This document shows positions 4,719-58,255 of a stretch of 64,000 bases of DNA, piece by piece (the stretch's first letter is position 1; each line of letters opens with the position of its first letter). Made by a program: the position numbers and the translations under genes. The notes under the pieces are model-generated. The model was not told where the DNA came from, ran no database searches, and worked only from the letters and a program-made list of their open reading frames with translations. This DNA is from a virus (taxonomy: Duplodnaviria > Heunggongvirae > Uroviricota > Caudoviricetes), in IMG/VR virus record IMGVR_UViG_3300045988_151230. One strand, 5' to 3'.

Positions 4719-4939
4719 TAGGCAGCTCTCTCAACAACAAGCAATTCGTCGTAGTCATAATCCGTTTCGGAACCATCCGTACCGAACAGAGTCACTTTGT
4801 CACCTTCCATCCAGAAAGATTTAACCGCACATCGTTTGCCTTTAGATGTTATGACCACATCACCTGGGATTACATCTTCAGCGCGAACTTCTACTGTTCT
4901 CATCATGCTAACCCTCTTTGGTGAAAACGCCTGATGCAA
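4718..4939 (-). CDS. hypothetical small protein
   Basis: 73-aa ORF, coupled to its neighbours. Confidence 0.4.
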   Translation of the reverse strand: MHQAFSPKRVSMMRTVEVRAEDVIPGDVVITSKGKRCAVKSFWMEGDKVTLFGTDGSETDYDYDELLVVERAA

Positions 4940-5321
4940 TACTGTTTATGATGCTGTCAGTACAGGGAGTAGAAAGCTGGTCATCTCCAGCTATTTTCAT
5001 GACTTCGACATCCGCATATCGAATACCGAGGTGTATCAGACCTGCTATACCTGACTTAAGTCGAACATTTTCCATAAACAGATCCTTTTCCCGCTGTTTA
5101 ACGGTCTCCAGCTCAACACGCAACTTCTCAATTTCGGCAGCCATGTAGTAACCAACCATAGCGAATACGGCAAAAGAGTTGTCTGCCTCATCAGGCGACA
5201 CTGAGGCCATTAGCAGACCATCGTAATAATCGTGACTCCCATTGGTGATCGCCACCGCATAGGAGTCGTGGTTCTCACGCTTGTGAATGAGAACTACGGG
5301 GTTTTCGATTTTGTTACTCAT
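4908..5321 (-). CDS. hypothetical protein
   Basis: 137-aa ORF preceded by the recurring leader ...AAAGAGAAAAACACATG. Confidence 0.45.
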   Translation of the reverse strand: MSNKIENPVVLIHKRENHDSYAVAITNGSHDYYDGLLMASVSPDEADNSFAVFAMVGYYMAAEIEKLRVELETVKQREKDLFMENVRLKSGIAGLIHLGIRYADVEVMKIAGDDQLSTPCTDSIINSIASGVFTKEG

Positions 5322-5459
5322 GTGTTTTTCTCTTCTTTGCTGTTACATAAGCACTACCAAGTGCTGGTTTATTTTCACAAATAAGAAAAGGTAGAAAACA
5401 ATTTATTTAAGGCCACAACTTATGGCCTTTATTTATTCATGCCGAAGGATTTGTAGCGT

Positions 5460-5840
5460 CTAATTGCCGGATAAAATGGGGTGAGGTGCTTGCCAGTAGG
5501 CTCCACCGGTCCATGTGAACCCCATGCGAATAAGAGTGTTTATTGCGGCTTTGGTAGACTCCGATTCGACACTGGCTTTTCGAAACTCTTGAACCTCTTT
5601 CGCCAACCTGTATGTAATTGTGCAGGGGACGATTGCAGCCCAGCCTTTCTCATGACTGTTAATGACCATCTGGATGTGACCATCCAGAATAGGTTGATTA
5701 GGCATGTTATTGAAAACGTCTGCCTGTTTTTGAATGTGAATAAAAAGCCTTGCCAGCTCCATTTGCTCACTACGAGACAAGGGATTATCAAGAGGGCTTT
5801 TTGCAAAAGCGGCTATACGCTGTGCGTCAATGCCAAACAT
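5460..5840 (-). CDS. hypothetical protein
   Basis: 126-aa ORF. Confidence 0.45.
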   Translation of the reverse strand: MFGIDAQRIAAFAKSPLDNPLSRSEQMELARLFIHIQKQADVFNNMPNQPILDGHIQMVINSHEKGWAAIVPCTITYRLAKEVQEFRKASVESESTKAAINTLIRMGFTWTGGAYWQAPHPILSGN

Positions 5841-55576: not shown

Positions 55577-55654
55577 ACCAACTCCTAGCTAACAGATGAA
55601 AGTATTCTCACAGAAAGATAAGTAATCATCTACTTATTTTAAAGGTGATTGTTA

Positions 55655-56833
55655 TCATAGAGCCTTAATGCCCAAAACCTTGCTTTGTAACTCCAACTGC
55701 TTGGTATACGGTTTTGCCCGATAATAGGCTTTGATGATTTGCTCTGGCGTTGCATCGCCCGGGTCGAGTCCTTCCTCGCCCAAACACGCCACTTTGACAT
55801 TAAGACCAATACTGGTCAGTCGCCTGGCTGCGGCCATCGTGTTGCGTATAGCTTGCTTTTCACTATCCCACATCATGATCACATTACGTAATCCACGCGC
55901 CTTGAGCGTCAGGAACGCGCCTAACTGATCTTCTGCATCCTGAGTGGTGTTACCAGATAGATGCATCCCGAACGTTCCTATTGGTTCCACGTAATCACGT
56001 AATGTTTCTTCGTCAAAAATAGCTCGTTTAACCCCCATAACATCGAACGCCCCCTCACAGACAACTACAGTCTGTTTGCCGACTGCATTATGGCCGTTGT
56101 AGAGAAACTTACCTGAAGCTGGAAGTTGCATTGGAAAGAGGTAGCGGCGTTCTGCTGTACCGGTAATGTCTCGTCCCTGAAATGTCTTCATTACCCCATC
56201 CAGATCGTAAACCGGTATCAGTATTCGCATATCGAATATCTGTCCTTTAACCTGATCTGTATACGGATCTACATAGGCGTGCTTGCCTTCGACGCAGTAT
56301 CGTAGGTCAAAATACTTTGCCATTTCAGGCGATATGTTTCGTTCAACCAGATAGTCTGGAAGACGGCCATCTATAGGAAGCTCGTAATGACGAGGGAGTG
56401 CAACTGGCTCCTCTAACTCGACTGTGCTTGCAAGCACTAGCTCTTCTTTCTTTGGTGCCCACCCCTGGGAAAGAAGGGCGTTCTGCACATATTCCTCGAA
56501 CTGTCGTCGTGATTTGCCGCTGTAGTGCTTGAGGAAGACCAGCTTATTGAACTGAATCTCTTCGGGATGATCACCAGCGAAGCATTTACCGACGCCACTG
56601 GTCAGATTGAAATATACCTTCCAGTTGGAGCTGCCGCATACCGGACACTCCTTGATATTCACTTCACGACCGCGAGTACTCACGCCTCCACGTCGATAAA
56701 CGATACCTTCAGTATCCAACCATTGTTCAAAATCTAATTCGGTAATTAGCTCTTTCAGCTCGCTCACGATAATTCCACTTTTAACAGGCAATATTGTGAC
56801 CAACCTAAATGTTGATATAACATAAAGGCTCAT
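55655..56833 (-). CDS. DNA primase (zinc-ribbon plus TOPRIM)
   Basis: CPVCGSSNW...C zinc ribbon; TOPRIM VVVCEGAFDVM and MMWDSEKQ; start taken at MSLYVI, which carries the recurring leader. Confidence 0.7.
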   Translation of the reverse strand: MSLYVISTFRLVTILPVKSGIIVSELKELITELDFEQWLDTEGIVYRRGGVSTRGREVNIKECPVCGSSNWKVYFNLTSGVGKCFAGDHPEEIQFNKLVFLKHYSGKSRRQFEEYVQNALLSQGWAPKKEELVLASTVELEEPVALPRHYELPIDGRLPDYLVERNISPEMAKYFDLRYCVEGKHAYVDPYTDQVKGQIFDMRILIPVYDLDGVMKTFQGRDITGTAERRYLFPMQLPASGKFLYNGHNAVGKQTVVVCEGAFDVMGVKRAIFDEETLRDYVEPIGTFGMHLSGNTTQDAEDQLGAFLTLKARGLRNVIMMWDSEKQAIRNTMAAARRLTSIGLNVKVACLGEEGLDPGDATPEQIIKAYYRAKPYTKQLELQSKVLGIKAL

Positions 56834-56914
56834 GTGTTTTTCTTTTGTGGTTTGGCAAAAGAAAAGTTGTTTCACCAATGAATCAAGCGTGGAGGTGTTC
56901 TCCACGCTTATTTT

Positions 56915-58255
56915 TTAGGTAACGTCTAAGATTCGCTCAATGAAGCGCATTTGTTCGAGGTTTTGTTTAACGCGAATGCTGATCCCTCCCTGCTGGTTAC
57001 GTGAACCAGCAAAGTAGAGACGAGCCTCTCCTTTCGCTTCTTCTTCTTCGGTTTTGTTGATCGTTATTACCAGGTCAGCAATACGTACTTTTTCGATGTT
57101 GTCGGCAGCGTGCATCATTGTGGCAACTTCTGACGCGCCACCTTCACGGTTTGTCTGCGATGCCGTGATCCCAGCAACGTTATGCTTGTCATAAAGAGCA
57201 CGTAAATCGGTGTAGATACTACGAATGTTGGCGCGATCATCACGAAGGTCATAACTGGCACGCATCAAATCTGCGTAGTCGACAACAACCATGTCAGGCA
57301 CCATGCCATTGGCTTTCATGCTGTTAAGCATACGGTCCAGATCTGCCGGTGACATACTTCCTGACGGACGCTCAACCACCCACAAACTACCAATCCCCTT
57401 CGTGGCTCCCAACTCTGCCAACTTACGATGAACCTCATCGCGCCGTTCCACCAGCTTGGACATTTCTGTCTCCGACAATCTTGCATCAAAACGGTCGGAT
57501 AAAATGGTGGTGTGAACCTCCAGCGAGAGATACAGAACATTGTAGCCAGCAAGCGTTGCGTTTATGGAAAACTCACCCATTGCGGTCGATTTACCGGATT
57601 TAGCGAACCCCATGAAGAGCACCATTTCGCGCTTTGCCCAGCCTTTTTGGTACAGCAACCTATCGAGAAGAGGGAGTCCAGTTGTAATACTGTTTGGTAC
57701 ATACTCCTCTGAAGCCTCATATTCACGCGCTTTCAATCGCTCACTTGCGGAGGTGTAGTAGTCATAGATTCCGGTCGCTTCGTTCGATCCAATCTGCTGA
57801 ACCTTGGCCATGATTGCCATCGCCCCCTGAAAGTCGCCTTTCTCTTTCAGTTCAGCAGCCTTAATCAGAGCATCATCAAACGCTACACTTTTTGCGAAGG
57901 TTGATACCTGGTCAACCATGTACGAGGTATCGGACAATTTTTCTGCAAGAATGCGCTTAAACGCAGCAACAACATCGGCGAATAGTTCCTCACGGATAGT
58001 CTTATCGCGTTTCGCACGCTTAAGCATATCCAGAATTGCAGATGAAGAGGGCGCGCTCTTGTACATACGATAATAGCCCGAAACCATATTAACCAATATG
58101 GCATTGGCCGCATTGGCAAACTGGCTAGGCACAACCAGATCTCCCGCACGAGTAAGAAACTCGTGATCACGACAAAAATATGCCGTCAGTCTGTTCTGGA
58201 AATCTTCATCAAACTCTTCGGACAGCCCGCGTCCTGTATGGCAAAGTTCGGTCAT
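56915..58255 (-). CDS. DnaB-like replicative DNA helicase
   Basis: Walker A GFAKSGKST, Walker B VVVDYADL, RecA-fold C-terminal domain; 446 aa. Confidence 0.8.
   Translation of the reverse strand: MTELCHTGRGLSEEFDEDFQNRLTAYFCRDHEFLTRAGDLVVPSQFANAANAILVNMVSGYYRMYKSAPSSSAILDMLKRAKRDKTIREELFADVVAAFKRILAEKLSDTSYMVDQVSTFAKSVAFDDALIKAAELKEKGDFQGAMAIMAKVQQIGSNEATGIYDYYTSASERLKAREYEASEEYVPNSITTGLPLLDRLLYQKGWAKREMVLFMGFAKSGKSTAMGEFSINATLAGYNVLYLSLEVHTTILSDRFDARLSETEMSKLVERRDEVHRKLAELGATKGIGSLWVVERPSGSMSPADLDRMLNSMKANGMVPDMVVVDYADLMRASYDLRDDRANIRSIYTDLRALYDKHNVAGITASQTNREGGASEVATMMHAADNIEKVRIADLVITINKTEEEEAKGEARLYFAGSRNQQGGISIRVKQNLEQMRFIERILDVT

Follow-up and report, generated by a model that had tools for sequence, protein, structure and literature searches.

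Why should more than a dozen genes of one phage-plasmid begin behind almost the same 20 nt? The question was raised by IMG/VR record IMGVR_UViG_3300045988_151230, a 64 kb stretch of Caudoviricetes DNA (the window) in which a first-pass annotation had listed 14 gene starts preceded by a near-identical leader, and had suggested either a common translational regulator or cassette-like gene starts spread by recombination. The window shared 97–99 % identity with the Escherichia phage-plasmids PhiR41_1, CMS-2020a and Cyrano and about 75–83 % with Salmonella phage SSU5 and Klebsiella relatives; by these identities it is an SSU5-like Escherichia phage-plasmid, of a family that also takes in Yersinia pestis pMT1-type and Enterobacter plasmids and has roughly 980 relatives in PLSDB. 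Almost all of the window genes are carried on the minus strand. No prior description of the leader was found in the searchable literature on SSU5-like elements. On balance the leader is probably a lineage-specific, start-associated module that serves early and replication units as a standard site of ribosome loading at their first cistrons.

Form and frequency of the leader

All 14 coordinates in the first-pass annotation, which are plus-strand positions, proved to be the A of a minus-strand ATG lying behind a near-identical leader (Table 1). Thirteen of these ATGs were the first start of the longest open reading frame (ORF), the exception being 56833, an internal ATG of ORF 55655..56905. The list was sound as far as it went but incomplete, a 15th site at 54296 having been missed, so that the 64-kb window holds 15 leader copies, all on the minus strand. 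In gene orientation the consensus was (ACCAC)AAAAGGAAAA(A)CAC, abutting the ATG, and the general form at the 14 starts was an A-rich tract followed by GGA(A/G)A(A)A(A/G)CAC-ATG, with one-base length variation between GGA and CAC. The leaders ended in AAACAC at 11 sites, in AAGCAC at 39114 and 58255 and in AAACGC at 44174. The core of the consensus proposed earlier was recovered, whereas its 5' 'CCAC' part was missing from most leaders and was seen in only 4–6 of them (28291, 32224, 33831 and 56833, and partly 42758 and 38565). A longer form, ACCACAAA(A)GGAAAAACAC, was shared by a subset. The products of the leader genes included a DnaB-like helicase, primase, DnaE, a gp32-like ssDNA-binding protein, NrdB, an SbcD-like phosphoesterase, an AAA ATPase, a TerB/TciA-like protein and several small proteins of unknown function.

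The frequency of the motif was well above expectation. There were 12 copies of AAACACATG against 0.88 expected, a number reached by none of 100 shuffles (0/100), and all 12 were on the minus (gene) strand; the 13-mer AGGAAAACACATG, with ≤2 mismatches allowed, had 11 copies in the window against 2.2 expected. When all hexamers preceding any ATG on both strands were ranked, AAACAC came first in the window (12 versus 1.0) and in the Klebsiella relative with 65 % DnaE identity (Kleb65; 10 versus 0.5), and third in SSU5 (10 versus 1.2). The information content of the 14 sites over positions -24..-1 was about 20 bits, with its peak at -7..-1 (1.1–1.75 bits per position) and not at the Shine–Dalgarno (SD) core. 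At every site the leader was flush with the ATG, with zero variation in spacing, and this register was fixed across six genomes. The leader genes all started with ATG (14/14), compared with 46 ATG and five GTG starts among other genes, and the other ~50 window genes mostly had ordinary, varied SD regions.

The leader was likewise confined to the gene strand in SSU5, where all 13 copies lay within 34.4–92.2 kb and none in the structural and lysis module at 1–30 kb. Every sampled family member from Enterobacteriaceae or Yersinia hosts had 3–14 copies of the motif, all on the gene strand. The host and outgroup controls were small (lambda, P1 1–50 kb and 50 kb of E. coli K-12 including ribosomal-protein operons), and neither AAACACATG nor its relaxed forms occurred in any of them. 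The trinucleotide CAC occupied positions -3..-1 in 16 of 65 window genes and 13 of 41 Kleb65 genes, and in none of 67 lambda, 55 E. coli, 34 Moellerella-plasmid and 39 Acinetobacter-plasmid genes. A scan of IMG/VR with the exact 14-mer AAGGAAAACACATG gave little beyond matches of one copy each, presumably by chance, in apparently unrelated contigs, a 14-mer being too short a query for a collection of 2.9 million contigs.

Conservation and turnover among relatives

Identity at positions -6..-1 to relatives of ~79 % nucleotide identity was 0.83 for leader genes, 0.53 for non-leader genes also lying behind intergenic gaps and 0.50 for the third-codon positions of those leader genes. When the comparison was made with the relative of 65 % DnaE identity, the three values became 0.77, 0.26 and 0.36. 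The effect was large, the p-values of 6e-5 and 8e-6 being optimistic because the orthologue pairs are not independent. Conservation of the SD core (-10..-7 or -14..-7) was equal in the leader and non-leader classes. Since -6..-1 was better conserved in leader genes while the SD core was not, it is the spacer and not the SD that is under special constraint and, judged from these alignments, purifying selection acts on -6..-1. The first-pass view that ordinary SD regions are much less uniform than the leader was therefore upheld: the leader is lineage-specific among the sequences sampled, strand-specific, locked to the ATG and, by the same comparisons, under purifying selection.

The leader had also been gained or lost between orthologues. 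Gene 39114 has it only in the window's lineage; a RuvC-like gene, a RecA-like gene and one other gene have it only in Kleb65, and a CobT-like gene only in pNH25.3. The gp32-like gene reads AAATAC in SSU5, pMT1 and pNH25.3 and AAATAT in p205A1. In three relatives dnaE is split, twice adjoining a gene for an HNH endonuclease, and in each the C-terminal fragment restarts behind a leader. This reuse at new starts, together with the gains at orthologues, points to a portable element. In p205A1 the annotated HNH endonuclease gene lies between the two dnaE fragments, and the C-terminal fragment of the Klebsiella oxytoca element CP056499 is annotated as 'uracil-DNA glycosylase'.

At greater distances the form of the leader changed. 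The K. oxytoca element, with a DnaE sharing 61 % identity with the window's, had CAC at -3..-1 in nine of 43 genes, and in it a recurrent form AATACACATG was present in 4 copies against 0.07 expected, with none in the window. Because this element keeps CAC with the AATACAC form, CAC-ATG appears to be a deep core whose flank shifts in concert within a lineage. The leader was absent altogether from a Moellerella element at the same DnaE distance (61 %), and an Acinetobacter relative (DnaE 39 %) had ordinary SDs only. A possible uniform leader of the Moellerella element's own, AAGGTAAAAGTAA, was dropped as a firm claim, its enrichment being modest (27 versus 13.6 at ≤1 mismatch, at 3–5 gene starts). 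The Acinetobacter baumannii plasmid NZ_CP149832, which is without the leader, carries an annotated Hfq-like RNA chaperone gene adjoining a DnaB-like helicase gene (L126 2151–2690).

The turnover bears on the second suggestion of the first-pass annotation. If the leader were a by-product of cassette-like starts or of promoter–leader modules copied by recombination or gene conversion, with no sequence-specific function, its presence or absence among orthologues and the longer form common to a subset of leaders would be explained, as would the homology between the window and SSU5, which breaks exactly at the ATG of 39114 with the whole upstream module replaced. That module, however, had no second copy in the sequences compared by BLAST, and ~1 kb of accessory genes inserted in Cyrano had no leader. 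The mutual similarity of the leaders was at background by -21 and right after the ATG in three genomes, which does not fit spread by recombination: within the window, Kleb65 and SSU5, pairwise leader identity was 0.91–0.93 at -6..-1 and 0.4–0.8 at -10..-7, but only 0.25–0.28 (background) beyond -21 and at +4..+33. Unlike neutral copies, moreover, the motif was kept well above third-codon positions at DnaE identities of 61–65 %. Passive copying of this kind is accordingly improbable, and the leader is a compact ~20-nt motif, not the edge of a duplicated or mobile segment. T4-type phages do contain mobile promoter-stem-loop (PeSL) cassettes, and PeSL and integron-like cassettes resemble the leader in that one short sequence recurs where many genes of a plastic genome region have their 5' boundary; the leader differs from them in having no extended homology, no association with the accessory insertions examined and no recombination-site features.

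Ribosome pairing, composition and structure

Pairing of the leader with the 3' end of 16S rRNA was limited to AAGGA, at -5.6 kcal/mol, and extended complementarity to the whole 16S rRNA was no better in leaders than in shuffled leaders. Ribosome pairing does not account for the conserved C at -3 and -1. Over positions -20..-1 the leader genes were composed of 62 % A, 19 % C, 14 % G and 5 % T, compared with ~35 % A and 21–26 % T in other genes. Their start regions were less structured, with a minimum free energy of -8.9 versus -12.8 and -14.8 kcal/mol, and the probability of being unpaired was 0.62 versus 0.52 (p = 0.004). The leader is thus more than merely a good E. coli ribosome-binding site (RBS). 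The exact AAACAC may be read by a partner other than the anti-SD, either the ribosome and initiation machinery itself or an added regulator.

Position of the leader in transcription units

The 14 leader genes all follow intergenic gaps, of 43–297 nt, and no gene with an upstream gap of <40 nt has a leader. Strong terminators lie directly upstream of leader genes 5321, 8998, 33831 and 39114, and 33831 also has a good match to a sigma70-like promoter. Scans for sigma70 promoters gave no enrichment (20 matches versus ~29 in shuffles), the match at 33889–33861 being the only convincing one.

Two palindromes were found in the intergenic regions. Palindrome A, GAAAACAAnTTGTTT, had 8 copies against 0.23 expected, always intergenic, 12–35 nt upstream of an ATG and usually preceded by TA(A/G). 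It also lies upstream of genes in Kleb65, and is present both with and without the leader; its probable role is that of an operator or of a component of a promoter specific to the phage. The 20-bp palindrome B, ATAGGTA-N6-TACCTAT, had at least 14 intergenic sites, with 20 loose matches against 5.7 in shuffles, and one copy (33864–33883) sits in the spacer of the best sigma70-like promoter. As a set it looks like the multi-site operators of a master repressor, such as the C1 operators in P1. Candidate binders of palindromes A and B are the product of a LexA-like S24 peptidase gene near the left end of the window and that of a 128-aa gene adjoining the integrase gene; the latter has no Pfam match in the window, and its orthologues in relatives are annotated as helix-turn-helix regulators. 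Four leader genes lie behind palindrome A, five behind palindrome B and five behind neither, and the leader is for this reason independent of the type of promoter or operator.

Stoperators, as in Cluster A mycobacteriophages, are asymmetric DNA sites bound by the phage repressor, with copies scattered in one orientation and positions not tied to a start codon, and the leader copies are likewise asymmetric, intergenic, in one orientation and scattered over the early region, with multi-site operator-like palindromes in the same intergenic regions. The leader might on these grounds be a DNA-level site, either an asymmetric repressor site or part of a phage-specific promoter. Stoperators are transcription-regulatory sites (PMC3203893). 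The leader keeps a fixed register relative to the ATG in six genomes, with zero spacing variation and an SD at the canonical distance within the motif. It also heads short upstream ORFs (uORFs) and the restart of split dnaE, and lies downstream of, and independent from, the two palindromes and the predicted promoters. A DNA site would have no reason to be locked to the start codon, and this reading is for that reason very unlikely.

Upstream ORFs at the primase and ligase loci

At the primase locus of relatives the leader ATG opens a short ORF and not the primase gene. This uORF is 23 codons long in SSU5, where its TGA stop and the primase start overlap as ATGA; it has 22 codons in pNH25.3 (TGAcaATG) and 15 in Kleb65 (TAAATG). 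The encoded peptide shows little conservation, and no SD precedes the primase start itself. Through a length difference of 2 nt, the uORF of the window is continuous in frame with primase, the conserved N-terminus of which begins at GTG 56767. The listing of 56833 as a gene start was thus correct for the leader and the ATG, whereas in relatives this position is the start of the short upstream ORF and not that of primase. In SSU5 (L002 35837–35908) the RefSeq primase start at 35905 is probably right, and the annotation misses the leader-driven uORF of 23 codons (35837) whose stop overlaps it.

The ligase locus has a similar arrangement. The twelfth copy of AAACACATG opens a mini-ORF at ATG 54296, within the 3' end of gene 54256..54738 and in another frame; the ligase SD (GGAGG) lies inside this mini-ORF, whose stop falls 8 nt short of the ligase ATG (54259). 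Its SSU5 equivalent, at 39590, has 12 codons; it overlaps the preceding gene as ATGA and the ligase gene as TAATG. A second SD inside the leader ORF is therefore present for ligase (GGAGG) and absent for primase. The geometry suggests that translation of primase and ligase is coupled to that of the uORFs.

As outlined in PMC6302717, the synthetic bicistronic design (Mutalik et al. 2013) combines an accessible first RBS, a short peptide with a second RBS inside it, and a stop codon overlapping the start of the gene. The primase and ligase loci resemble what is outlined there in their layout, in the stop–start junctions TAATG, ATGA and TAAATG, in the second SD within the ORF (ligase) and in the use of one standard leader for many genes. 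They differ in being natural and not engineered, most leaders here drive their gene directly, and coupling is read from the geometry. Because the uORF geometry matches that design, the leader may be regarded as a portable ribosome-loading module.

Candidate trans-acting factors

Pfam scans covered 50 window proteins, ~44 kb of the element lying outside the window. Among the 50 proteins there was no RegA, CsrA, Hfq, S1, KH or cold-shock (CSD) domain, no match to the RegA family (Pfam Translat_reg) and no identifiable RNase or toxin domain. Searches for a complementary 'anti-leader' RNA gave only scattered chance matches on either strand of the window and SSU5, and Rfam found only tRNAs in the window, with no C4-like or other regulatory RNA family. 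The product of 37537–38565 (minus) is a homologue of T4 gp32 (PF08804, E = 1.7e-66, residues 30–230) and, by inference only, may be a trans-acting factor for the unstructured leaders, the sole candidate within the window. The 5' untranslated region (UTR) of its gene (38566–38640) is unusually conserved, and in it two invariant hairpins (GCC...GGC enclosing GCGC-AUA-GCGC) precede the unstructured leader; in RNAalifold the hairpins were conserved without covariation, compensatory changes being seen in 1 of 21 pairs. The gp32-like genes are present also in the Moellerella and Acinetobacter relatives, which are without the leader.

In T4, RegA represses ~30 early mRNAs via unstructured poly(A)+AUG operators (PMC3014915), and gp32 represses its own translation by binding to an unstructured leader (PMC3014915, PMC535899); gp32 control is autogenous, concerns a single mRNA and nucleates at a pseudoknot (PMC3014915, PMC535899). 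The operators of both are A+U-rich, and RegA sites have no clear consensus (PMC3014915). The leader resembles RegA sites in occupying the initiation regions of many early and replication genes and in being unstructured, with a 5' poly(A) tract, at or abutting the AUG; it differs in that the leaders are U-poor and near-identical and in that no RegA homologue was present among the window proteins scanned. The likeness to gp32 control lies in the gp32-family protein itself and in its own mRNA, with a conserved, predicted-structured 5'UTR and then an unstructured A-rich stretch into the start. One mRNA and a pseudoknot are involved in T4, whereas the motif here stands on ~15 genes and gp32 homologues occur also in leaderless relatives.

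A regulon of the T4 RegA/gp32 type is accordingly the alternative to be weighed most carefully, and we regard it as possible but rather doubtful. The leader would be the RNA operator of a trans-acting translational regulator, a phage or host protein for which the gp32-like protein is a candidate, and binding to AAAA(A)CAC-AUG would co-repress or time the translation of replication genes, keeping them silent in the plasmid-prophage state, for example, or turning them off late. Consistent with this are the sequence-specific conservation that 16S pairing does not explain, the absence of the motif from the sampled host genes and other coliphages, the reacquisition of the hexamer at independently gained starts and the concerted AATACACATG variant in the K. 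oxytoca element. Replication genes predominate among the targets, the format of the leader matches that of the RegA operators, and the gene of the gp32 homologue itself has the leader behind a strongly conserved 5'UTR. Against it stand the missing RNA-binding domains among the scanned proteins, the low U content (5 % T) as opposed to the A+U-rich operators of T4, and the tolerance of one-base length variation and of A, G or T at -4, as well as the leaderless relatives with gp32-like genes and the lack of covariation in the gp32 5'UTR hairpins. Regulation of this kind would be compatible with a cis-acting module, as an extra layer on top of it.

It is far less likely that the leader is an endoribonuclease site, cut within -4..+1 by an ACA-specific toxin such as MazF or by a RegB-like enzyme to switch the mRNA to a near-leaderless or inactivated form. 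The trinucleotide ACA spans -2..+1 in almost all variants, including AAGCAC-A and AAATAC-A, and the leader is predicted to be single-stranded; ACA is trivially common, however, the AAACGC variant (44174) does not contain it, and the scanned proteins included no RNase or toxin domain. Nor is the model in which MazF generates leaderless mRNAs undisputed. The T4 RegB/S1 sites likewise have an SD-containing extended motif, GGAGRAYARAA, with an A-rich 3' side (PMC3014915).

Other features of the window

An insertion sequence of 1.3 kb, encoding a DDE transposase (PF01609), lies between nrdA and nrdB, ~100 nt upstream of the nrdB leader and its palindrome A, and is absent from Cyrano and SSU5. The RecA-like recombinase has 779 aa compared with ~358 aa in SSU5, which is without the extra ~1.28 kb; the Enterobacter orthologue is annotated as an intein-containing RecA. 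An ORF-poor stretch holds a cluster of tRNA genes, with Thr(tgt), Tyr(gta) and Asn(gtt) identified by both Rfam and ARAGORN and a possible Ser(tga) by ARAGORN only. In SSU5 TGGGTAATG had 8 copies against 0.64 expected, on both strands, scattered, mostly intragenic and often followed by G; it also occurs in the window at 31398. TGGGTA-ATG, over-represented in SSU5, was rejected as a start-associated class, its copies being scattered and mostly internal. In Kleb65 the start of the AAA ATPase gene is annotated at 18585, 12 nt too far downstream, the leader ATG being at 18573.

Table 1. Leader sites and other features, given as positions in the 64-kb window unless another sequence is named
Feature	Position	Strand	Leader or remark
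137-aa gene (Eae-like in Cyrano)	5319..5341	minus	aagaagagaaaaacac-ATG
234-aa Ead/Ea22-like gene	6542..6564	minus	gataagagaaaacac-ATG; palindrome B 41 nt upstream
184-aa hypothetical gene	8996..9018	minus	attaaggaaaacac-ATG; palindrome A 18 nt upstream
141-aa TerB/TciA-like gene	9719..9741	minus	acaaaaggaaaacac-ATG; palindrome A 24 nt upstream
nrdB, ribonucleotide reductase small chain	19931..19953	minus	gaaaaaggaaaaacac-ATG; palindrome A 31 nt upstream
361-aa metallophosphoesterase (SbcD-like)	28289..28311	minus	aaccacaaaggaaaaacac-ATG
91-aa hypothetical gene	32222..32244	minus	aaccacaaaaggaaaaacac-ATG, fullest motif form
66-aa membrane protein gene	33829..33851	minus	aaccacataggaaaacac-ATG; SPFH gene 3 nt later
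Terminator and best sigma70-like promoter upstream of the 33831 leader	33919-33899 (terminator); 33889-33861 (promoter)	minus	promoter contains palindrome B
T4 gp32-like ssDNA-binding protein gene (37537-38565)	38563..38585	minus	cacaacaaggagaaacac-ATG
143-aa hypothetical gene	39112..39134	minus	gtaaaaaggaaagcac-ATG
dnaE, DNA polymerase III alpha, 1172 aa	42756..42778	minus	aaccagaaaggtaaaaacac-ATG
411-aa AAA_5 ATPase	44172..44194	minus	variant acaaaggaaaaacGc-ATG; orthologues ...aaacac
Ligase mini-ORF, 15th site, ATG 54296	54267..54316	minus	leader-like acaaaagaaacac-ATG; 9 codons, MSKSINIWR*
Primase locus, ATG 56833	56831..56853	minus	start of a short ORF in relatives; in frame with primase, as one ORF, in the window
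DnaB-like helicase, 446 aa	58253..58275	minus	aacaaaggaaagcac-ATG; palindrome A 19 nt upstream
Palindrome A	8303-8317, 9017-9031, 9746-9760, 19965-19979, 32722-32736, 46398-46412, 58275-58289, 61511-61525
Palindrome B (examples)	6586-6605, 10637-10656, 12850-12869, 17688-17707, 23705-23724, 33864-33883, 49052-49071, 52096-52115, 55618-55637, 59052-59071
Split dnaE, fragments of ~788 aa and ~388 aa	L129 20001-24244 (Enterobacter p205A1); L125 20001-23598 (Klebsiella NZ_CP055187); L133 20001-23624 (K. oxytoca CP056499)
LexA-like S24 peptidase gene	1606-1995	minus
128-aa gene adjoining integrase gene	46940-47326	plus
Insertion sequence between nrdA and nrdB	20031-21322
RecA-like recombinase	33924-36263		extra ~1.28 kb (insert) at about 34796-36072
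tRNA cluster	50797-51347	minus

Discussion

The reading preferred here, that of a standard ribosome-loading site, would work as follows. A module of ~20 nt would combine a short, A/C-rich, U-poor, unstructured 5' leader, a modest AAGGA SD 7–8 nt from the start and a near-invariant AAACAC abutting the ATG. It would load ribosomes on the opening cistron of each early, replication or nucleotide-metabolism unit with a promoter of its own, the later genes of the unit being translated from ordinary or overlapping (coupled) starts. At genes with poor starts, such as those for primase and ligase, the module would instead load a short uORF whose stop overlaps or abuts the start of the gene, and translation would be handed on by coupling. 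The function of the leader would thus be efficient, context-independent initiation.

Several points weigh against this reading. The proposed function is deduced from sequence only, and the AAGGA SD is only moderate in strength (-5.6 kcal/mol against the 16S 3' end). A purely cis-acting 'good RBS' leaves the fixed C at -3 and -1 unexplained; it accounts neither for the fact that host ribosomal-protein genes and other coliphages do not use it nor for the concerted shift of one lineage to AATACAC. The leader is not required for a first cistron, because ~26 other genes with upstream gaps of ≥40 nt are without it. The gene set and some of the starts were derived from our own ORF heuristics, the relatives were sampled as pieces of 31–50 kb, and the phylogenetic non-independence of the orthologue pairs makes the p-values optimistic.

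The closest known system is the start-associated sequence (SAS) and extended SAS of Cluster K mycobacteriophages (Pope et al. 2011, PMC3203893), which occur in 11–19 copies, in one orientation and in the non-structural half of the genome only. They lie a few bases (3–7 bp) from mostly ATG starts, have an SD core together with conserved bases unable to pair with 16S rRNA, and are rare elsewhere; inverted repeats, regarded as DNA-binding sites, lie upstream of about half of them, and the SAS is present or absent among orthologous families (PMC3203893). The leader shares the copy number, single orientation, non-structural location, preference for ATG, combination of an SD core with non-pairing positions and presence or absence among orthologues, and in both systems upstream inverted repeats accompany about half of the copies. 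There are also clear differences. The consensus here is A-rich (AAGGAAAACAC) whereas that of the SAS is GC-rich (GGGATAGGAGCCC), and the host phylum differs; the leader is flush with the ATG and not 3–7 bp away, and it is U-poor and unstructured. It drives coupled uORFs and the restart of a split gene, and the palindromes here occur also without it. On this comparison the leader is an analogue, not a homologue, of the Cluster K SAS.

Were the leader the operator of a genome-wide translational regulon in this temperate phage-plasmid family, a possibility to which we give only limited credence, one RNA-binding factor acting on ~15 mRNAs would switch the whole programme of replication and nucleotide metabolism from plasmid maintenance to lytic growth or back. 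Candidates for the factor would be the gp32-like protein when it is no longer bound to ssDNA, an unrecognized phage protein or a host factor specific to Enterobacteriaceae. If so, the concerted AATACAC variant of the K. oxytoca lineage would represent operator–regulator co-evolution, and the leader would be the first 'start-associated sequence' with a function testable in E. coli. A regulator that reads the motif would add a new layer of control over the decision between lysogeny (as a plasmid) and lytic growth.

As a standard ribosome-loading site, our preferred reading, the leader would be a natural counterpart of the synthetic 'standard RBS' and bicistronic design, one portable leader serving many genes, sometimes via a coupled ORF. 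For annotation, it indicates the true starts of primase, of the Kleb65 AAA ATPase and of the split-dnaE fragments, and marks the heads of translational units. SASs were described in 2011, and no explanation of their function was found in the literature. The leader provides an independent, sequence-unrelated SAS-like example in phage-plasmids of E. coli, Salmonella, Klebsiella and Yersinia, a group that is medically relevant and genetically tractable and in which the function of such sequences is testable.

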